The notes beneath the pieces are model-generated. The model saw nothing but the letters and a program-made list of their open reading frames with translations, did not search any database and was not told the origin of the DNA. From a phage: DNA of 40,535 nucleotides. Below, piece by piece: positions 4,043 to 39,954 of this stretch. The DNA lies in the NCBI GenBank assembly GCA_032185465.1, contig GCA_032185465.1_4549.1. One strand, given 5' to 3'. The translations under genes were made by a program, and so were the position numbers. Every line of letters starts with the position of its first letter. Positions within the stretch are counted from its first letter, which is position 1.

Positions 4043-4291
4043 TTAAATAGAAATACCGCCACCAGAGGTGCGAGAGACCTGAAGGCTACGCTTACCGGAA
4101 CGCTTCACTTTCTTCTCATCAGATGCGGTTGCTTCAGTATCCACATCCTCCACTTTGTCGTTCGGTACTTCCACTGGTGCTGCTGGGGTCTTAGCCTCAA
4201 CAACCTTAGGCGCGTCATCAGAGCCAAGACCAACGGTCCCTAACGTACTTTTCACCACTTTCTTGAAGGCCTTACTGATTGATTTACCCAC
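4043..4291 (-). CDS. gp7.3-like virion (tail assembly/adsorption) protein
   Basis: 82 aa, MGKSISKAFKK...SGGGISI matches recalled T7 gp7.3 ends. GTG start with AAGGAG 7 nt upstream. Confidence 0.8.
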   Translation of the reverse strand: MGKSISKAFKKVVKSTLGTVGLGSDDAPKVVEAKTPAAPVEVPNDKVEDVDTEATASDEKKVKRSGKRSLQVSRTSGGGISI

Positions 4292-4688
4292 GATTAATCT
4301 CCTTAGTTGTTACGATGTCTACCGACCCGGAAACATGCTTGACACGAGAATACCAGCCAAGACCCCAACGCTTGCACTCTTCGTCTATGATATGTCTGAC
4401 AGTCTCAAGAACCTTGCGGGAGGACTGCGAGTCACGACGAATAGCGACTATTGAAAGGTCAAGACCGGGAGTCGGTCGGTGCCAAGATGCGGTAGCCAGC
4501 ATGTAGAGATACGCTACTGGTTGACCTGAGGCATCGTAGATTGTGTATTCTTCACCGTCGAACTCGTCAGCCATACGGTAAGTATGAGCCTTGAAGTCCT
4601 CGAATGACTTGAAGTTAGACTGCCCGTCTTCCCAGAGGCGACAAGCGCACATATGGCGACCTTCGCGTGAGTTGAGATATGGTAGCAT
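4284..4688 (-). CDS. gp7-like virion protein (start uncertain)
   Basis: 134 aa ORF in the gene 7 position; internal ATG at 4652 with a better Shine-Dalgarno is an alternative start. Homology is from weak recollection plus position. Confidence 0.6.
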   Translation of the reverse strand: MLPYLNSREGRHMCACRLWEDGQSNFKSFEDFKAHTYRMADEFDGEEYTIYDASGQPVAYLYMLATASWHRPTPGLDLSIVAIRRDSQSSRKVLETVRHIIDEECKRWGLGWYSRVKHVSGSVDIVTTKEINRG

Positions 4689-6923: not shown

Positions 6924-7521
6924 CTTTCTGTATTCTCCCATTACTGGAAGTGTCGGACTATATCATCAGTCTTTGAGGTGACTGTCTGGCGCTTCGGGTT
7001 ACGTGGGAATCTCACCCACGGCCCTACTCCTTTCGGATAGTCTCTACGCCTTCCACTCTCTAATCCACCCACAGGCGGCTGAGAACGACACATTGAATAT
7101 TTCGGCTAACTTCGTTCCAGTACACCCAGTCTCTACCCAGTAGTCTCGTGCTTCTAGCTTCCTAGCAGCGTATCGCTCTTTGTTGGTCTTGACTAAGTGT
7201 GAGTCCCGGTCTAATACTTGTAGATGTTCGACGTTGCAACAAGCTCTATTACGACACTTGTGGTCTACTTCGAAACCGTCAGGTATTGGACCATTAGCTT
7301 TAATCCATACAGTTCTATGATACATCTCAAGGACACCGTTAGTCCTCTTTCGGAAGTATCCATCCTGATTCAATTTATGTGACGTAGGGATTATGCAGCC
7401 AGTCTCAGTGGCCTCAAGAATTAACTTCTTGCCTCTCATACATCCTCCCTATGGCTTGGCTCGGTATTGTCCCATTAGGAGTTCACCGAGTTCACCAGAT
7501 TTAATGTGCACCATGATGTTA
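6924..7521 (-). mobile_element. putative group I intron in the DNA polymerase gene, carrying an HNH homing endonuclease ORF
   Basis: 598 bp separating ...AYMAWVH (followed by in-frame TAA) from DELQIAC..., i.e. splitting the conserved HDE motif. Exon 1 ends in T and the insert ends in G, as expected for group I splice sites. Intron secondary structure not verified. Confidence 0.6.
7044..7439 (-). CDS. HNH homing endonuclease (inside the polymerase insertion)
   Basis: 131 aa with HNH motif HRTVWIKANGPIPDGFEVDHKCRNRACCNVEHLQVL; ATG at 7439. Confidence 0.85.
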   Translation of the reverse strand: MRGKKLILEATETGCIIPTSHKLNQDGYFRKRTNGVLEMYHRTVWIKANGPIPDGFEVDHKCRNRACCNVEHLQVLDRDSHLVKTNKERYAARKLEARDYWVETGCTGTKLAEIFNVSFSAACGWIREWKA

Positions 7522-32400: not shown

Positions 32401-33357
32401 GGTCAGCGGGTCTACACCAGCACCAATCACACCAGCTGCTAACTGAGCACCAGTCCCAGCCTTGGCCTTCTCTTGGTCCAACTTCTGGTTCTCAAGCGCT
32501 AAGTTAATAAGCTCGGTCAGGTTCTGAGGGGAGCCACCAGTAATGACACCGTAATACTGAGGAAGAACCCCAGCGTTACGAATCTGGTCCAGCTCCTCGC
32601 GAGTCCACTTATGGTTGTTCCAGCGGGTCGGGTTGAACACATCGCCAATGACATCAAGTGAGTCCTCGGTCTGACCAGCGCGGATAGCCACGCCGACCAT
32701 AGAGTTCTTCACTTCAGCTTCTGTAGCCGAGCCGAAACCGAACCACGTAGAGCGATCCTCTCGTTCCTGCATGGTCTCGCCAGTAGACTTATAGAACATC
32801 TCACCGAACGATTCGTTGGGAGCTTCAGGTGCTTGACCCTCAATGTTTAGACCAGCAGCGGTCGGAAGGTTCTCACCCAGAGCTACTTTAGGTTTAGCCT
32901 TGAGTCCTTCCGTGAGTGCGTCAAATACGTTAGCGCTTACTGGTGGAGTCTTTGGGCTGATACCGTTGAGTGCTCTTGCGACTCCCTGCTGATAGACTTC
33001 AGGATTGTACCGGGAGCCTGTCTCATGGAAGCTAATAGCTTGCGCCAGAGCAGACAGGGTGTCCGGGTTCGATAGGTCGAGACTTTGGGTAGCTGGAATA
33101 CCAGTTGCAGCCACCACTGAGTCGATATAAGCCTTAGTGTCGTTCTCGTTAGGAGGTGCCCATCGGTTGATAATCTTCTCGATGGAGTCATAGCCTTGGC
33201 GACCGTAGGACAGCAGGTTTTTACCTAAAGCTCGGACGCCAGACTCTGGACTATCGAAGATAACGAAATCGCCATCATCACCTATAGCACCTTCCCATTG
33301 GTCTTTGGACTTACGGATGTTCCCGGGGTTTGAGTTCCTTACTCCACGTGTCGCCAT
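29470..33357 (-). CDS. internal virion protein D, gp16-like (ejection protein)
   Basis: 1295 aa; long colinear blocks with recalled T7 gp16 (GGSPENL, RLEARETARN, VRSPTGMQSGASGK, RREMMENPA, GTYVPHVY, EARNLFDSD, VNGDIAIMG, KILTGRARR, AMDLWR, LRPHK). N-terminal about 140 aa does not show the T7 SLT catalytic motif. Confidence 0.95.
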   Translation of the reverse strand: MATRGVRNSNPGNIRKSKDQWEGAIGDDGDFVIFDSPESGVRALGKNLLSYGRQGYDSIEKIINRWAPPNENDTKAYIDSVVAATGIPATQSLDLSNPDTLSALAQAISFHETGSRYNPEVYQQGVARALNGISPKTPPVSANVFDALTEGLKAKPKVALGENLPTAAGLNIEGQAPEAPNESFGEMFYKSTGETMQEREDRSTWFGFGSATEAEVKNSMVGVAIRAGQTEDSLDVIGDVFNPTRWNNHKWTREELDQIRNAGVLPQYYGVITGGSPQNLTELINLALENQKLDQEKAKAGTGAQLAAGVIGAGVDPLTYVPIAGQVGKGAKLVNKMFTVAAQSGALAGVSEMARTSVAGGDAHVSEAILGGALFGGGMTAIADGLGRALGRNTNEFAGPATRLEARETARNVDGQDLSRLPIQEGEQTFSHQGVKFADVPNEPGSVRLEDGSILIGENPLNPKTRQVFDEVIEPERAAAGVNLGGLTEIGLKLLRSENPEIRGVAADLVRSPTGMQSGASGKIGTTASDVFERLRAVDHRFYNDIDDAVTEALKDPYLQTAFWRDSGAFRQDIYQRVSMAIEDGSGNLKAELTPGELKVYDLLKNQFDAKREMMENPAMFGRPDAQSIFPGSRFKGTYVPHVYSKQMKELYTKELGSPEALQEAIKKSWLTSYASRPEVKKRVDEALLESDPTLTPEGLAAAVDKYANDKAYGISHTEQFERSSVMEENINGLVGLENNSFLEARNLFDSDMSIVLPNGQTFSVNNLREWDMDKIVPAYNRRVNGDIAIMAGTGKTTKDMKDLVETMMNKAGDDGKLKGEVSTLRDTLKILTGRARRDGADDAAFAAVMRTMTDLAFFAKNAYMGVQNLTEIGGMLARGNVRAMLHGVPMFRDLAFRNKKVGASEIKDLHNVLFGKELDDSIRPSKQDVIDRLRSYSDLGRGTATALGTAKYYTGELAVRSPFTKVLNGTTNYLLDAGRQGFLSDIVEHSLTGSKRKFDDRWLKTAGISDEQWKGIKSLIRESVTRGPDGKYTIKDKKAFSQDPRAMDLWRMGDTIADETLLRPHKLSNMNAKAYGPLAKTVLQFKNFVIKSINGRTMRTFYNATKNNRAMDAALSTVMSMGLAGIYYMAQAHVKAYAMQDGRDRDYLKQALDPTMIGYAALSRSSHLGGPLGVANILGGIAGYEDTKMLRSSILPRSPTEKPERAISYGAATSDPVMNVVGNFLEQVPAFGYAANVGASAYNLAGYLKADTRVNERDYMTGMYNTFRELVPNDPITQKLLLGTFEEQGIHIKD

Positions 33358-33788
33358 GTCTTTCTCCTCAAGATATTTCTAATAGAAACCGTACTCACTC
33401 CATAGCGTTCAGCCAAGAGTGAAACCTTTAGGTCGCTGGACCTTATGTCTCTAACAATGTCTTCCGTTAGTTTAGACACTCCGATTGAGCATCCGGCAGC
33501 TTGCCGACCTCTGGACACCTTATCTTTAATGTTGTCAGCTTGTGTGCCGACTTCAAGATGCTCAGGGTTTACACATGACGGGTTGTCACACTTATGGCGA
33601 ACAACATATCCATCCGGTATTGGACCATGAGCTAGCTCGTAGGCCAGCCTATGCGCTCCGTGTTTAACTCTATTTATCATAATACGACCATATCCGTTCT
33701 TCTCAACACTTCCTATGAAGCGAATACAGCCAGAGTCTTCAGCTACTGACAGTTCTGCCAGTCTCTCACTGGCTGTCCCGTTCTTCAT
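33339..33788 (-). CDS. HNH homing endonuclease between gp15 and gp16
   Basis: 149 aa; HRLAYELAHGPIPDGYVVRHKCDNPSCVNPEHLEVGTQADN; ATG 2 nt after gp15 stop; 3' end overlaps gp16 start. Same family as the intron-encoded HNH. Confidence 0.85.
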   Translation of the reverse strand: MKNGTASERLAELSVAEDSGCIRFIGSVEKNGYGRIMINRVKHGAHRLAYELAHGPIPDGYVVRHKCDNPSCVNPEHLEVGTQADNIKDKVSRGRQAAGCSIGVSKLTEDIVRDIRSSDLKVSLLAERYGVSTVSIRNILRRKTWRHVE

Positions 33789-33790
33789 GT

Positions 33791-36073
33791 TTACTCCTTA
33801 CCTATTAGTGCATTTGCGATACCCTCCAGTGAGACGTCATTGTACATCCCACCGCGCTTCTCGATGTTGGCCTCTCGGTCAGCTCGACGTTTGTCACCAG
33901 CAGCTTTAGTCCCGACGATACGCGCTCGCTTGTTAGCGTCACGTTCTGCCTGAGCATATGCAGCATCTTGTGCCTTCTGCTGTTGTTCGCGGTATAGTTT
34001 ACCTACAAGTTCTTTATCGTATCGAATACGAATAGTCCCTGTAGCGTCTTGGAGGAAGATAGAGCCGTTCTGTTCAACAACGGACAACTGAGAGTTCACT
34101 ACCCAAGGGTTGGCCTTAATGAGCTGCTTACGAGCGGTGTCGATAATGTCTCGACCCACCTGCCACGACTCTGGGTTATCCCCGACCATAAGCTGGTGCT
34201 TGGACACCATGCCGATGGACTTACCGTCAGAACCTTCAGACTGGAACGTTACGGTGTTCTCATTCAGCCAGCGTTGAGTCTGCTGAGTTGCAGCGTCAGC
34301 GTTACCTGTACGATAGTACCATGAGTCCCAGACCTTACGAGCACTTGCGTCCAGAGACGTAGGAAGACGCGAAAGGTCCTTATTCCGAGAGTCATTCTTC
34401 AACTCCTGCCACGCCTTGTCTGACTCCATGCGCATCTCACGGCTTTGACTTGCAGCTTGCTTATCAGCTTCAATCATCGTCTGAGGGTCCAGACCCATCT
34501 TGTCCATCTGGTCGAACGTAGAGAACAACTGAGCTTGGTCAGGATACAGAGCAGAAAAACTTGAAGGGTCCTGAGTGTAGGCACGACGAAGAGATTCGAA
34601 GCGTTGCATCTTGTCTGGGTCGTACTGCCCACGGATGACCGCAGCTTGCCACTCACCAGCAGCGTCCTGAGTCAGCGTCTGGAAGGCATTACGGAACGGA
34701 CCGTTGTTAGTGTCAGCTCTTAATAATGCAACCTTCTGTGCGTCCTTAGCAGCCTCAGGGATGTCCATCTGGTCAATCTGCTGTAGCTTAGCAGACGCAT
34801 AGTTGTTCATGTCTGAACGCTTGAACTCTCCTGTGGCTTCAGAGACCGGAAGGTCCTCATAGTTGGTGGACACGTTGTCTCCAGCCAGACGTCGCTGATA
34901 CACTTGGTCAATGACCAGTTGCTTGTTCTGGGTCTGGATTAACTTCGTGTTCTCCTTCGCCTGTTCAGCAGACTTACGCTTTACCGCTTCCAGTAAGCTG
35001 GCTTCGGCATTAATAAGCATCTGACGCTGAGGTGTGAGTTCTTCACCCGGTTGAAGCAGGTTGTTCTGCTCCTTGAGTTTTTGAATCTGGGCCAGACCGA
35101 TGGTTGGGTCGTCCTGAAGAATCGCAGACTGAACGCCTAACGCTAAGTCTTCCTGATACTTAGCCACCAGCTTGTACTCAGTTCCTTGTGCCTCAACAAT
35201 AGCAGCGTTGAAGACATCAGGTCCTACAATCTCTTCGACTGTAGCATCCACGCCGTTAAGGGTGATTCGCTCGCCTCGTACTTGCTGTAGGAAGTTTGAG
35301 CCGCCTGACTTCTGGATTGCGTCACGTACCGTCTGGGTAATGACATCACGCGCCCGCTGGTCCGAGGGGATAGCAGCAGTAGTCAGTCCATCACGAAGGT
35401 AGGCCATGAATGTCTTGCCAGACTCAGGTGAACGCATCAGGTCGCCATCGTTCAGGAATGAGTTCATCTCAATACGGGTGTTCAACATTGCTGTCTCTTC
35501 AGACTGCTTGCTGAAATACTTATTGAAAGACCCATAGATAGCGATGTTGCGGTCTGTGATGTTATCGTTGAACCCACGCTGGAAGAACTCGTCTGTAGGG
35601 TTAATACCCGCCTCTTCAGCATAGGACTTAGCGGCGTCCTGAAGTCGCTGGTGGCGATACTCTTCCATGTCCTGACGTGTACGGAACTCACCGTTCTGAA
35701 TCTTAACGTTAATCTCGTCGTCTACAGCAAAGGCAGCATTACGACCAGTCTTGACTCGAAGTGCTTCCATAGCGTAAGGGTCATCCTGATACAGCAATGT
35801 GCCGTTCTGGATAGCCTCACGTCTTTGCTGAGGTGTCAGTTTACGGATAATCTCGTTAGACCGCTCGTCAGCTCTGGTCTTCTCCTCGTCCTTGAACTGC
35901 TTGTACAATCCAGTCCCAGACTCAACGAAGTTGGTTAACGCACGAGCCAGACCGGAGTCCCCAGTCGGAGCCTGAACGTTGGCTGCTTGATAGTTGACGG
36001 CGATAGTTTTACCCGGCGCTCTGCCGCGACCCATAGTCCGATTAGCCAGAGCTGATTCAATATTACTAGCCAT
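33791..36073 (-). CDS. internal virion protein C, gp15-like
   Basis: 760 aa; ADERSNEIIRKLTPQQRREAIQNGTLLYQDDPYAMEALRVKTGRNAA and following blocks colinear with T7 gp15. Confidence 0.95.
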   Translation of the reverse strand: MASNIESALANRTMGRGRAPGKTIAVNYQAANVQAPTGDSGLARALTNFVESGTGLYKQFKDEEKTRADERSNEIIRKLTPQQRREAIQNGTLLYQDDPYAMEALRVKTGRNAAFAVDDEINVKIQNGEFRTRQDMEEYRHQRLQDAAKSYAEEAGINPTDEFFQRGFNDNITDRNIAIYGSFNKYFSKQSEETAMLNTRIEMNSFLNDGDLMRSPESGKTFMAYLRDGLTTAAIPSDQRARDVITQTVRDAIQKSGGSNFLQQVRGERITLNGVDATVEEIVGPDVFNAAIVEAQGTEYKLVAKYQEDLALGVQSAILQDDPTIGLAQIQKLKEQNNLLQPGEELTPQRQMLINAEASLLEAVKRKSAEQAKENTKLIQTQNKQLVIDQVYQRRLAGDNVSTNYEDLPVSEATGEFKRSDMNNYASAKLQQIDQMDIPEAAKDAQKVALLRADTNNGPFRNAFQTLTQDAAGEWQAAVIRGQYDPDKMQRFESLRRAYTQDPSSFSALYPDQAQLFSTFDQMDKMGLDPQTMIEADKQAASQSREMRMESDKAWQELKNDSRNKDLSRLPTSLDASARKVWDSWYYRTGNADAATQQTQRWLNENTVTFQSEGSDGKSIGMVSKHQLMVGDNPESWQVGRDIIDTARKQLIKANPWVVNSQLSVVEQNGSIFLQDATGTIRIRYDKELVGKLYREQQQKAQDAAYAQAERDANKRARIVGTKAAGDKRRADREANIEKRGGMYNDVSLEGIANALIGKE

Positions 36074-36084
36074 TAGTCCTCCTC

Positions 36085-36639
36085 TTAGCTATGACCTGTA
36101 GGTGTACCTTTAGCAGCACTAATTGGTGCAGCACCGCCAGAGCTGGACGCTCCAGAGATTGACTTACCAGCGGCGTAACCTTGCATCCCGGCGGTAGCAA
36201 CATTAAGTGCATGAGCCAGTGGGCTGGTCTTGATGATTTTACCCTGACCACGGATAGCAGACTTGGTGTTCTCAATGTTGGCGATACGGTTCCCGAAGAT
36301 AGCCGCATAGTCACGGTTGTAGCTTTCGGTAATCCCGGCTCTCTCCTTGACTGTGTCTCCCGCGACTTGACGTTCAATCCTGTCAATAGAGTTACCTTCC
36401 AGACCGGACTCAGCCACCGCAGCTCGGACCATACCCTGATTGCGGATACCGTTGAGCGTGGTCTCTGTCAGTTCAGCCATCTGCTGCTCCTTCAGGTCGC
36501 GCTCCTGCATCTTCAGGTTGGCGTCAGAGTAGTTCATCTGCTTAACCATTTCCTGAGACTGTCGGTTCTGAGCGTCAATTGCTGCACCTTCAGCCTTGGC
36601 CTGTTGGGATGCGGACATAGTGGCACCAGCTACAGACAT
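36085..36639 (-). CDS. internal virion protein B, gp14-like
   Basis: 184 aa; SYNRDYAAIF and C-terminal AAKGTPTGHS match recalled T7 gp14. Confidence 0.85.
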   Translation of the reverse strand: MSVAGATMSASQQAKAEGAAIDAQNRQSQEMVKQMNYSDANLKMQERDLKEQQMAELTETTLNGIRNQGMVRAAVAESGLEGNSIDRIERQVAGDTVKERAGITESYNRDYAAIFGNRIANIENTKSAIRGQGKIIKTSPLAHALNVATAGMQGYAAGKSISGASSSGGAAPISAAKGTPTGHS

Positions 36640-36675
36640 AATACCTAAACCGATTGAAATTGGTTCGCAAATTTC

Positions 36676-37062
36676 CTAATCCCCCTTCCGGCTTGTAGCC
36701 AGATACTCAGCAGCCTTACCATCGAAATCTTCGCATGTAGAGTGGTAGTTTCTACGGGTCAGCTTTAGGTTGCAGGTATGACATAGGATTCCTCGGACTT
36801 TCCCGGAGGTGTGACAGTGGTCAACGCATAATCCTCGGCTAGTTCCTAATGTCTTGCAGATTGCGCAGACCCCGCCCTGCTCTTTTAGGATGGAATCATA
36901 TTCTATCTGCGTAATGTGATACTTCTCGTATCCCTTGTTCTTGTGGCTCCGTCCATTATGACACAGCTTACAGGCAGAGCGTACACCACACTTAGAGTCT
37001 TTCCGTGGAGAGAACGCTTCTAGTGGCTTTTCAATTTTACAGACGGTACAGACCTTAGTCAC
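36676..37062 (-). CDS. endonuclease VII-type (HNH-like) nuclease inserted between gp13 and gp14
   Basis: [36 protein letters not shown] resembles the T4 endonuclease VII core. No ATG in the ORF; likely GTG 37062 overlapping the upstream stop (GTGA) with AAGGAGGA 5 nt upstream. Track start is GTG 37125. Confidence 0.75.
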
Positions 37063-37520
37063 GTGTCCTCCTTGGTGATTGTGAATAGAATGAATACTTC
37101 TCCAGTCACTGGACTTCTGGTCCACTTATCGTCGTGGAACTTAGCGCCTATTGACTTGAGAAACCGGATGTGAGACGTATTTCCTTCCCAGACGTAGTTC
37201 CATAGTACCGGATAGTCCTCCAGCATCTTGTCACGATACTCCATGATTCTCTCACGGAACTCTCGCTTACCTTTAGGCTGGAGACGCTCTGTCATTCTGG
37301 TAGTCAGGAACCAAACGTTGTCACCGTGGTTGCCACCATAGGCATATATCTCTCCAAGAGCGTTAGTCAAAACCACAGATGAAGACGTTAGGTGTGCTTG
37401 TAACCTTTCAGTGAGACCTTCAAGGGTCCCATAGTTGGCTTTACACTCCTCTAAGTCGTCATCTGTAAGTTGTGCAGCAGCGTACCAAACGTCTACATCT
37501 GTAGCCTTGCGAATATACAT
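37059..37520 (-). CDS. hypothetical protein in the gene 13 position (possible internal virion/assembly protein)
   Basis: 153 aa, ATG with AAGGAG upstream, directly after the phi13-like promoter. Assignment is positional only. Confidence 0.5.
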
Positions 37521-37549
37521 AAAGTCTCCTTATAACCTTAAGGGCCTAT

Positions 37550-37572
37550 AGTCCCTATAGTGATAGTTAAGG
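37550..37572 (-). promoter_or_regulatory. phage RNAP promoter (phi13-like): CCTTAACTATCACTATAGGGACT
   Basis: Consensus match between gp12 stop and the next gene; flanked by a perfect 12-bp inverted repeat. Confidence 0.85.
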
Positions 37573-37596
37573 TAAATCTATAGGCCCTTCAATAAG

Positions 37597-39954
37597 TTAG
37601 ACTGAACGAGCTTTCTTAGCGTATGACGCCTCCCAGCCACAGCCAACGATGGACACTGGGGTAGGATAATCTGACTCTAAGGTTAGACTCGTGGTTAATG
37701 CGTTACCATTCATAGCGAAGCGATACTGCCCGTCACCAATGTTAGTAGTCCCTATGGCTTGCTGACCAAGGGTGTACCCATTAAAGGTGTTAACGAACTC
37801 TCGCTCACCGTTTCTGACAATGAGTCTCAGAGCGCCAGTGTCCTTGTAGTTGACCCAAGCCCGACGAAGCTGTAGACGACCAGTGTCTTCAGACTGAGTG
37901 CCACTATCATCTTCAATCTTAATCAGGAACCGTGAGAACTTGTAGGACATCAGATAGGTCCGCCCGATGAACACTGTACGTCCTGACCAATCGCCGTTGA
38001 GGGTAATCACAGTAGAGATACTGGTCAAGTCCCCAAGGTCCAAATAAGCACCCTGACTGTCAATCAGATAGTACCGACCGGGAGACGGAGCATTACCACC
38101 ATAAGCAGAACCAATGTCAACCGTAGTCTTATAGGTGTCAGCGTTGTATGAGCCAATTGGTATTACCATAGACACCTTGGAGTCAACGTGGAGTCTATAT
38201 GGCTCTAACGGAAAGTCAGTTGCCTCCTTGATGAACTTAAGGTGCTCAAGGTCCACGCCGCCTTGGTGCTGACGAACAATGAACATGGTAGAGCCAATCG
38301 ACGCAGACGCCAGAATCTTATCAGCTTTAGGGAACTCCCAGTGCGACCAAGAGGCTTGAAGCTGTACGCCGTCCTTAAACAAGAACTTGTAGAGGTAGAT
38401 TCGGTTGTATGCACCTGTAGAGTTGACGCAGATGTAGTTCTCAGTCCCTGTCCCCTGAATGTCAAACACCCCGTTAGGGATGTAGGACAATACGTGACCG
38501 GTTGTATCATCAGCATCCTTCACATCAGACACATCAGCTACAGCGAAGTATCGCTTAATGCTGGTGAATGACCCACGAGGAGCTGAGAAGAAGACTGAGC
38601 GTCCTACAGCGAACGGTCTGGCATTATCTCCTAAAGCAAACTCTGAGCCTACATCAAGCTGGATAGACTTCGAGGTAAGGACCCCAGAGCTTGTCATCAC
38701 GAACTGCACCTCATCCGACCAAAGTAGTAGCTGCTCGCTAAACGGAACGGCATACTTAAGGATTGAGATTCGAGGGTGACTTACAGCTACATCAATAGGA
38801 TCAGCATCACTCAGTGTCGCCACACTCTTAGGGAAGAACGCAAAGTAGCTGGCTGAACGGCTCATGATTACGTTCTCACCCGACAAGAACCCTAGCCTGT
38901 TCCTGTAGAAGAACACATCATTAATCGCAGCATCCACGAAGCTAGGCATAGGGTTTGTGTCATCGTTACCAGCACCACGCTTGGACCAATCCAGAGTCTT
39001 GAACTCAAAGGAGCCGTCAGACTGTCTTACCAGAGCATGTGGCATTGTGGTGTTGTCGAACCCAGTGACAACTCCCGGCTCAACTGTCTCCTTCCACGTC
39101 TTAGTGTTGGAGTCATACATCACGTAGTATTCATCGGCGCTACTGTTTGTTTCACCTTGAATCTTAATGATATACCCATTAGGAGCGGCAAGAGGTAGTT
39201 TAGAGATTGTCTGCACAGTGTCTAGGACTGGGCTTATTAGCTGGTTAGCGTAGCCATCCTCCGTCTCCACTGAGTTAATGTCGGTCCCTGAAGGAGCTGT
39301 GATTAGCAGGAAGCCAGACCCAAGGTCAAACGTGAAGGTAGGGTAAGCAGCAACAAGAAGGACTCTCAGAGCTGCCCCAATGGCTTGAGCGTCCACCTTA
39401 GGTGGGTCATTCTCGGCATCATTACCTGCTGGTAGCTTATGCGAGACCTTAACGCCACCGTTGATTCCCACTTTAAGGGTTCGACCATACTGCCCACCAC
39501 GCAGGTTAATTAAAGCTCGTGCTTTGCGGTTATAACCAGAGTGTGACTTCTCGCTTCCACCTTTGACGACAACCTTACGGTTAACGACGAACGTATAGTC
39601 TGCCACGGTAACGACACGGATGTCATCTCGTGGGTTGGAGGACTTAACGTAGTCTACCGCACCGGACACTGAGTATTGATTACCGCTCAAGTCAACTACC
39701 TGAATGTTGGACCCATTGAACACTATATAGTACTGCTCCTGCTCGTCACGATTAATCAGGTGGAACTTAGGGTTGCTCCCAACGTCGATGTTAAGACGTC
39801 GCTTGAAGACTGTAGGTGGACGCTTCTGGAGGCCATCACTCTCTGATGACCAGCAGTTAACCTGTGACTCGCCTTGGTCTGAGAACCTCAGTATGTCAGG
39901 CTGTTGGCTAATGCCACCCTTAAGGTTCTTGATTGATTGAGTAATTAGTGGCAT
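37597..39954 (-). CDS. tail tubular protein B, gp12-like
   Basis: 785 aa; N-terminus SIKNLKGGISQQPDILR and many blocks (NRLGFLSGEN, PIDVAVS, LKYAVPFSEQLL, RAWVNY, IVGCGWE) colinear with T7 gp12. Confidence 0.97.
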   Translation of the reverse strand: MPLITQSIKNLKGGISQQPDILRFSDQGESQVNCWSSESDGLQKRPPTVFKRRLNIDVGSNPKFHLINRDEQEQYYIVFNGSNIQVVDLSGNQYSVSGAVDYVKSSNPRDDIRVVTVADYTFVVNRKVVVKGGSEKSHSGYNRKARALINLRGGQYGRTLKVGINGGVKVSHKLPAGNDAENDPPKVDAQAIGAALRVLLVAAYPTFTFDLGSGFLLITAPSGTDINSVETEDGYANQLISPVLDTVQTISKLPLAAPNGYIIKIQGETNSSADEYYVMYDSNTKTWKETVEPGVVTGFDNTTMPHALVRQSDGSFEFKTLDWSKRGAGNDDTNPMPSFVDAAINDVFFYRNRLGFLSGENVIMSRSASYFAFFPKSVATLSDADPIDVAVSHPRISILKYAVPFSEQLLLWSDEVQFVMTSSGVLTSKSIQLDVGSEFALGDNARPFAVGRSVFFSAPRGSFTSIKRYFAVADVSDVKDADDTTGHVLSYIPNGVFDIQGTGTENYICVNSTGAYNRIYLYKFLFKDGVQLQASWSHWEFPKADKILASASIGSTMFIVRQHQGGVDLEHLKFIKEATDFPLEPYRLHVDSKVSMVIPIGSYNADTYKTTVDIGSAYGGNAPSPGRYYLIDSQGAYLDLGDLTSISTVITLNGDWSGRTVFIGRTYLMSYKFSRFLIKIEDDSGTQSEDTGRLQLRRAWVNYKDTGALRLIVRNGEREFVNTFNGYTLGQQAIGTTNIGDGQYRFAMNGNALTTSLTLESDYPTPVSIVGCGWEASYAKKARSV

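Follow-up and report, generated by a model that had tools for sequence, protein, structure and literature searches.

An endonuclease VII-type gene between genes 13 and 14 of a Kayfunavirus genome: a likely free-standing homing endonuclease gene that separates the gene 14 start codon from its ribosome-binding site

A nuclease gene in the slot between genes 13 and 14

The stretch of phage DNA analyzed in this study (GenBank assembly GCA_032185465.1, contig GCA_032185465.1_4549.1; 40,535 nucleotides, referred to as the window) carries on its minus strand, between genes 13 and 14, a gene of 128 codons for a nuclease with an endonuclease VII (Endo VII) motif. We consider the gene likely to be a free-standing homing endonuclease gene, belonging to the Endo VII-motif DHHRN beta-beta-alpha-metal family, a reading in which we infer cleavage, target and homing from sequence comparison. 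It is inserted as a cassette of roughly 390 bp that separates the ribosome-binding site (RBS) of gene 14 precisely from the start codon of that gene, and every genome with the 3' end of this cassette has ATT at the gene 14 initiator position. The window belongs to the Kayfunavirus (the K1F/EcoDS1 group of coliphages in the T7 family), and megablast with positions 36000-37700 returned 216 phage records, nearly all of them Kayfunavirus, with Escherichia phage PSK1 as the top match at 98.7% identity. The gene order around the nuclease gene is that of T7, and the features of the slot on the gene 13 side are as follows:

37550-37572, minus strand: phi13, late phage-RNA-polymerase promoter (genes 13, nuclease, 14, 15 and 16); 23/23 exact match to the annotated phi13 of EcoDS1
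37059-37520, minus strand: gene 13, internal virion/scaffold protein of 153 amino acids; Pfam Phage_T7_Gp13, E=6.5e-36
37066-37073, minus strand: Shine-Dalgarno sequence (SD) AAGGAGGA of the nuclease gene, which serves gene 14 in cassette-free relatives; duplex of SD and anti-SD (16S 3' end), -11.4 kcal/mol
36676-37062, minus strand: Endo VII-type (DHHRN / beta-beta-alpha-Me) nuclease gene, 128 codons, GTG start, TAG stop

A reading made earlier from the sequence only had placed the gene at 36676-37125. The maximal open reading frame (ORF) with these coordinates does exist on the minus strand, while the real gene is confined to 36676-37062. As had been noticed in that reading, the frame has no ATG; our scan for in-frame start codons found neither ATG nor TTG, and GTG only at codon 1 (37125) and codon 22 (37062). 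The start proposed there, GTG 37062-37060, likewise held up, since it overlaps the gene 13 stop codon TGA 37061-37059 as GTGA, is preceded by AAGGAGGA inside the last codons of gene 13 with a pairing energy on par with that of gene 15 (-12.0 kcal/mol), and corresponds to an ATG in orthologues. This codon is ATG in ST21, Penshu1, Esher7 and EcoDS1 (MTKVC...) and GTG in PSK1, U8, KM02 and CY1. We regard this comparative evidence as decisive, and by alignment with the orthologues 37062 is the correct start of the gene. The upstream GTG 37125 was rejected for want of an SD (-0.8 kcal/mol), for its position within gene 13 and because the orthologues begin at the 37062 codon. The GenBank records of PSK1, U8, KM02 and pO91 annotate the same 387-bp coding sequence (CDS) or an in-frame derivative of it. 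Pairwise ratios of nonsynonymous to synonymous substitution rates (dN/dS) over the 128 codons of six orthologues ranged from 0.05 to 0.15, which argues that the frame is translated and its protein is under selection.

Motifs, fold and family of the nuclease

The earlier assignment of the protein to the Endo VII family was borne out by formal profile search, with E=1.3e-16 and 60.7 bits (cut-off 23.6) against Pfam Endonuclease_7 (PF02945) and E=1.9e-26 against the PHROGs family 'endonuclease VII' (phrog_2633). The 128 residues divide into an N-terminal CxxC...CxxC module, a helical linker and a C-terminal catalytic core, and conservation was assessed in an alignment of 46 sequences consisting of this protein and 45 database homologues. 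The two modules are encoded as follows:

36952-37062, minus strand: N-terminal zinc-ribbon-like module, residues 1-37 (C5, C8, C31, C34); a beta-strand module in the AlphaFold2 model with predicted local distance difference test (pLDDT) values >90, aligning to Hpy99I from residue 76 onward
36769-36867, minus strand: catalytic core, residues 66-98 (C66-x2-C69, D81 H82 C83 H84, R90, C94-x2-C97, N98), all invariant in the alignment

Judged by sequence, the zinc-ribbon-like module is presumably the DNA-binding part of the nuclease, and its C5, C8 and C31 are nearly invariant among the homologues. The published family motif CX2-4C ... DH(D)H ... R ... CX2C-N comprises four Zn ligands and the catalytic residues D, H, H, R and N (PMC6083498). 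All of these are present in the window protein as C66, C69, D81, H82, H84, R90, C94, C97 and N98, and their counterparts in T4 Endo VII are C23/C26, D40/H41/H43, R54, C58/C61 and N62 (PMC6083498). In the AlphaFold2 model (mean pLDDT 86.9), a small beta module is followed by helices and then by a beta-beta-alpha unit spanning residues 78-102, in which strands 78-82 and 89-94 are followed by helix 95-102 in the order of the beta-beta-alpha-metal fold. The leading Foldseek matches of the model were Hpy99I, T4 Endo VII and HNH domains.

Insertion between the gene 14 ribosome-binding site and start codon

In cassette-free relatives such as Salmonella phage ST66 and PRF-SP2, gene 13 is directly joined to gene 14 and the empty sites are precise. 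The empty 13/14 junction reads ...AAAGGAGGCTGATATGTGCGAACC... in ST66 and ...AAGGAGGTGAACCGTGTGCGAGCC... in PRF-SP2, with the gene 14 start set apart as ...ACTAAAGGAGGCTGAT ATG TGC GAA CCA... and ...AAGGAGGTGAACC GTG TGC GAG CCA..., respectively. The left junction in the window is ...ACCAAGGAGGACAC GTG ACT AAG ..., leading into the nuclease gene, and the right junction is ... CGG AAG GGG GAT TAG GAA ATT TGC GAA CCA.... In the alignment with the empty site of ST66, AAAGGAGGCTGATATG runs into gene 14. This comparison of junctions places the nuclease gene between the SD and the start codon of gene 14 and shows that it uses that SD itself. The earlier statement that T7 has no gene between genes 13 and 14 is correct, the gap there being 4 nucleotides (nt).

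Gene 14 is provided with another SD by the 3' end of the cassette:

36680-36687, minus strand: replacement SD AAGGGGGA for gene 14, in the last codons of the nuclease gene (R K G D); -10.8 kcal/mol, 8 nt upstream of ATT

This AAGGGGGA is conserved across all cassette-bearing genomes, decayed copies included. In the cassettes of two phages of other genera, kpssk3 and Tarrare, the C-terminal codons YLGGE-stop spell the SD TAGGAGGTGA ahead of a gene 14 that keeps its ATG.

Just upstream of the gene 14 SD, a small hairpin of 7 bp (UCUGGCU-ACA-AGCCGGA) is predicted at 36688-36704 (minus strand). Its stem is conserved and its loop is variable among relatives, and a G-to-A change in ZG49 and pO91 replaces a U:G pair by U:A. 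This conservation could be explained at the protein level, by the amino acids L-A-x-S-R that the segment encodes.

Distribution, independent history and decay of the cassette

The slot region was covered over at least 80% of its length in 14 of the 216 related phage records (megablast), and full-length copies of the window allele numbered 11 among the 216. The gene is thus sporadically present at a single site among collinear close relatives, as a homing gene would be. A history independent of the flanking genes, likewise characteristic of homing genes, was apparent from two comparisons. The cassettes of U8 and the window share 99% identity, compared with only 61-74% for the adjacent gene 13, the similarity switching exactly at the SD, and the window and ST21/Penshu1 alleles differ by a synonymous divergence (dS) of about 1.5 in backbones that are about 95% identical.

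The 13/14 slot also holds a relative with 44% identity (the EcoDS1 13.5 type) as well as a third type (Ro45lw). Endo VII-type genes were found in the same slot of other genera, namely in Przondovirus kpssk3 (L028 901-1278) and Teseptimavirus Tarrare (L029 898-1293), and the nuclease gene of Klebsiella phage kpssk3 likewise begins with GTG. The 13/14 junction is therefore a recurrent insertion site in three Studiervirinae genera. Related Endo VII-type genes are located at or beside the DNA polymerase genes of other T7-like phages, and the published family members at T7-like DNA polymerase genes are encoded in group I introns (PMC6083498).

Decayed copies were of two kinds, and together they follow the cycle of gain, decay and loss expected of homing genes. 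Deletions affect the nuclease gene in KM02, Esher6/7, Monomax, the metagenome contig SKEL01000564.1 and ZG49, while point damage was observed in ST21 (C94R, with loss of a Zn ligand) and pO91 (G87W). The deletion in ZG49 (L010 1596-2195) took the 3' end of gene 13 together with the 5' half of the nuclease gene and left an unannotated remnant; the remnant is the catalytic half and shares the reading frame of the truncated gene 13, from which one TGA separates it. A pattern scan of IMG/VR for the 3' junction of the cassette recovered ZG49 and Ro45lw, genomes already in the comparison, and nothing else. A metagenome scan for the cassette added two genuine examples, and a further candidate from that scan (L020) was rejected as a chance match.

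Gene 13 itself occurs as two allele classes of about 61-63% nucleotide identity within backbones that are about 95% identical (window versus L004-L006, L008-L010 and L012). Each class is found next to all three states of the slot (the cassette, the EcoDS1-type cassette and the empty site), which indicates that recombination around the 13/14 slot is frequent.

Proposed homing and the alternatives to it

The exact match to phi13 at 37572-37550 places the nuclease ORF in the late transcription unit headed by gene 13, and the gene would be transcribed late from this promoter. Its translation would start at GTG 37062 by means of the strong SD that once served gene 14, and the GTGA overlap would couple it to the termination of gene 13. 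In a mixed infection, the 128-residue protein with its zinc-ribbon module and Zn-stabilised DH-H-R-N core would most likely nick or cut the cassette-free 13/14 junction of related phages, and repair of the cut junction from a cassette-bearing genome would copy the cassette in. Cassette-bearing genomes would presumably be immune because the insertion splits the target site. The R-K-G-D-stop codons of the cassette supply the new SD of gene 14, which is probably AUU-initiated and possibly coupled to the nuclease frame.

The sequence-only reading had offered two functions, of which a coupled, GTG-initiated homing nuclease fits the sporadic presence, the flank-independent history, the decayed copies and the presence of endonuclease I elsewhere in the genome, whereas a junction-resolving enzyme found no support. 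A T4 gene 49-type enzyme for resolving Holliday junctions or branched DNA, recruited to the virion module in order to clear branches before or during packaging, would be in keeping with late expression alongside the virion genes from phi13, with a Pfam family that is named for T4 Endo VII and with catalytic residues common to both proteins. We nevertheless regard this role as very unlikely, since the phage already possesses endonuclease I (E=7.7e-81) and the nuclease would not be its sole resolvase, since most close relatives lack the gene and are viable, and since viable phages retain catalytically damaged as well as deleted copies. Furthermore, only residues 16-85 of the 157 residues of T4 Endo VII align (query 59-121), leaving its C-terminal part without a counterpart, and the position of the motif at residues 66-98 of 128, in the C-terminal rather than the N-terminal half, assigns the protein to the published 'endonuclease' and not the 'resolvase' clade. 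An untranslated or decaying remnant, in which the absence of ATG reflects a lost start codon, might be suspected from the frame itself and from the several relatives with deleted or point-damaged copies. This is scarcely credible for the window copy, which keeps all invariant family residues, has at GTG 37062 a strong SD (-11.4 kcal/mol) aligned with the ATG of orthologues, shows dN/dS of 0.05-0.15 and has a GTG-started relative in kpssk3.

Improbable, though less so, is an accessory nuclease that does not home and is kept for its benefit to the phage, for example by degrading the DNA of the host or of competitor phages and thereby excluding co-infecting relatives, without copying itself. The authors of a study on a related phage speculated that host DNA is the target of its Endo VII and HNH genes (PMC8861465), and the dN/dS of 0.05-0.15 is compatible with a beneficial function. 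Such a role would leave unexplained that the exact same intergenic slot is occupied in three genera, that the cassette has sharp boundaries at the SD and the gene 14 start, that its similarity is incongruent with the flanks and that family relatives reside in or beside T7-like DNA polymerase genes, with published members in group I introns; the repeated decay fits the gain-decay-loss cycle of homing genes instead. Two points weigh against homing as the explanation. Absence from most of the related records, for example ST66, marks the nuclease gene as dispensable, and ordinary recombination of a dispensable gene with some other benefit among co-infecting phages could produce both the sporadic presence and the incongruent similarity. 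In addition, template modelling scores (TM-scores) of the AlphaFold2 model to solved structures were low (about 0.3), even though the Foldseek probability for Hpy99I was 1.00. To judge from the model, the flexible link between the two modules is probably responsible for the low scores, and because of them the fold search mainly confirms the family and adds little to the sequence evidence. A homing endonuclease gene is still the reading that we consider likely.

An ATT as the probable start of gene 14

Among cassette-bearing genomes, the codon at which gene 14 starts in cassette-free relatives has changed, a consequence of the cassette that had escaped the sequence-only reading, and the features concerned are the following:

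36670-36672, minus strand: ATT at the ancestral start position of gene 14 (by alignment; ATG/GTG in cassette-free relatives), a probable AUU start
36085-36672, minus strand: gene 14, internal virion protein B, in the extent proposed here, 195 codons from ATT, on the basis of Pfam T7_gp14, SD and codon conservation

The ATT follows the nuclease stop codon by 3 nt and is found at the gene 14 initiator in all genomes with the 3' end of the cassette, comprising 17 genomes of the phage collection and several metagenome and Logan contigs (13/13 of the distinct cassette-bearing junction sequences). The cassette-free and the EcoDS1-type relatives have ATG or GTG at this position. Database annotation begins gene 14 of the window at the next ATG (36085-36639, 184 codons), and the starts in public annotations lie 7-18 codons downstream of ATT and are inconsistent between records.

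Several observations point to ATT as the actual start of gene 14. Codons 2-11 (C-E-P-I-S-I-G-L-G-I) are kept as amino acids by means of 2-4 synonymous codons each, including TCN/AGC serine, with replacements only among I, V, T, L and M, and this constancy of the amino acids through synonymous codons argues for purifying selection on a segment that the annotated start would exclude. The gene 14 product matches Pfam T7_gp14 with E about 1e-42, and the profile scores 151.2 bits and aligns from position 2 when translation is begun at ATT, compared to 143.6 bits and position 11 for the annotated ATG. The SD ahead of ATG 36639 is weak (-4.7 kcal/mol) and that serving ATT is strong (-10.8), and in Monomax the downstream ATG is replaced by CTG. 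ATT is the only start codon in the interval from the in-frame TAG to the Cys codon of gene 14. AUU starts are rare in E. coli, the classical cases being infC and pcnB. On this comparative evidence, translation of gene 14 probably starts at ATT with an AUU initiator. Counting against such a start, recombination with phages that have the ATG could in principle renew the conserved codons 2-11. With ATT as the true initiator, the gene 14 start given in all cassette-bearing Kayfunavirus records is probably wrong, lying 7-18 codons too late.

In-frame remnants and possible translational coupling

Four independent internal deletions have shortened the nuclease gene, and all four are in frame and retain the original start as well as the TAG:

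L007 2139-2321: remnant in KM02, 60 codons
L012 (Esher7) about 1969-2042: remnant in Esher6/7, 24 codons
L015 about 1455-1543: remnant in Monomax, of the Ro45lw type, 29 codons
L022 about 7176-7322: remnant in metagenome contig SKEL01000564.1, 48 codons

Mini-ORFs of 24-60 codons consequently stand upstream of the gene 14 ATT. Four deletions would all be in frame by chance about once in 81 trials, the sample being small, and in one Logan contig the frame ends prematurely at a TAA four codons ahead of the usual TAG. The in-frame state of all four deletions hints that translation of gene 14 is coupled to the nuclease reading frame. Tentatively, gene 14 might depend on termination and reinitiation by ribosomes that read the nuclease frame to its stop just upstream of ATT. 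Opposed to such coupling is the lack of an RNA structure masking the gene 14 RBS, as the predicted fold was no better than that of shuffled sequences (z=+1.06).

The comparisons would also allow, as a possibility that we put forward with reserve, that the cassette took over the RBS of gene 14 and left it with an AUU start in need of ribosomes stopping 3 nt upstream. Dead cassettes might then be kept as in-frame leader mini-ORFs rather than being cleanly deleted, a translational 'addiction' that would stabilise the selfish gene after homing has ended.

The TAG of the nuclease gene is in frame with gene 14, and a fusion of nuclease and gp14 by readthrough was considered. Such a fusion is unlikely given the extra upstream TAA in L027 and no sign of suppression.

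Relation to known genes and enzymes

As a sequence the nuclease gene is not new. The 'endonuclease VII' CDS of PSK1 (XAO35742.1) is 100% identical over 387 bp and has the same slot and a GTG start overlapping gene 13, and the copies in ZCEC02, HC13, MirsaeidiM_Esher2 and vB_EcoP-U8 are 98.7-99.7% identical over 387 bp with the same slot and GTG start. There is no material difference between this group and the window gene; its members are known from database annotations only, several of them as 'hypothetical protein', and the copy in CY1 is unannotated. Annotated relatives are also present in Penshu1 and EcoDS1. Gene 13.5 of EcoDS1 ('endonuclease VII'), which also occurs in Hafnia phage yong1/Ca and vB_EcoP-101136BS1, shares the 13/14 slot, the architecture and the N-terminus MTKVC... 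with the window gene. In contrast to the latter, it starts with ATG, its product has only 44% amino acid identity to the window protein, and its 3' junction is organized differently, with a stop codon that overlaps the gene 14 start and a gene 14 that keeps ATG or GTG instead of ATT.

EcoDS1 gp13.5 has been listed as a C-terminal Endo VII-motif protein of the endonuclease clade (Table S1 in Fang et al. 2018, PMC6083498). The hallmark of this clade is a motif in the C-terminal half, its podovirus members all have endonuclease I, and a homing role for such podovirus genes is a published prediction at the level of the family (Fang et al. 2018, PMC6083498). The one characterised member of the clade is the homing endonuclease F-CphI of cyanophage S-PM2, the founding member of the DHHRN family (PMC6083498). 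According to its published description, F-CphI resembles the window protein in being free-standing and small, in having the motif (CX2C, DH.H, R, CX2C-N) in its C-terminal half and in residing in a phage with a separate resolvase. The two differ in that cleavage of psbA by F-CphI, which works with a group I intron, has been shown experimentally, whereas the target of the window protein would be an intergenic RBS/start junction and no intron is involved. A paper on a Hafnia Kayfunavirus lists the Endo VII gene merely as an extra gene (PMC8861465).

The best relative of solved structure is Hpy99I (PDB 3FC3/3GOX), which ranks first both by sequence (E=1.6e-4, query 3-105 versus residues 76-182) and by fold, the match covering both modules. 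Unlike the window protein, this bacterial restriction enzyme carries about 75 additional residues as a further domain at its N-terminus, and it has a partner methyltransferase (PMC6083498). T4 Endo VII (gene 49; PDB 1EN7, 2QNC) belongs to the same Pfam family and matches in its Zn-binding and catalytic residues. It was a weaker match than Hpy99I, and its N-terminal motif is followed by about 70 residues, two-fifths of the protein, that have no counterpart here. T4 Endo VII is also the resolvase of T4 itself, whereas the phage studied here uses endonuclease I.

The nuclease gene is of little weight on its own, being one more candidate for a free-standing Endo VII-motif homing endonuclease. The takeover of the gene 14 RBS by the cassette, the conserved ATT of gene 14 and the fact that dead cassettes persist in frame may be undescribed, as far as can be told from a limited literature search that was not aimed at these points. 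Knowledge of the recurrent insertion site at the 13/14 junction across three Studiervirinae genera is useful when these therapeutic phages are engineered. If the coupling were true, the cassette would be a simple example of a selfish gene that rewires how an essential neighbour is expressed and thereby outlasts its own inactivation.

Other features of the window

Apart from the 13/14 slot, the following genes bear on the context of the nuclease gene:

37597-39954, minus strand: gp12, 785 amino acids
33791-36073, minus strand: gp15, neighbour in T7 order
12616-13068: endonuclease I, canonical T7-type resolvase; Pfam Phage_endo_I, E=7.7e-81

A tblastn search of the window revealed no second copy of the nuclease gene. 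ORFs 12125-12616 (minus strand, 163 amino acids) and 4284-4688 (minus strand, 134 amino acids) had no Pfam match at E<=0.01. Two more small endonuclease genes of the HNH_3 family were found at 33339-33788 (minus strand, E=1e-17) and 7044-7439 (minus strand, E=9.4e-16). The former lies in the virion-core module, like the nuclease gene, and separates gene 15 from gene 16; both are probably additional free-standing homing endonuclease genes.

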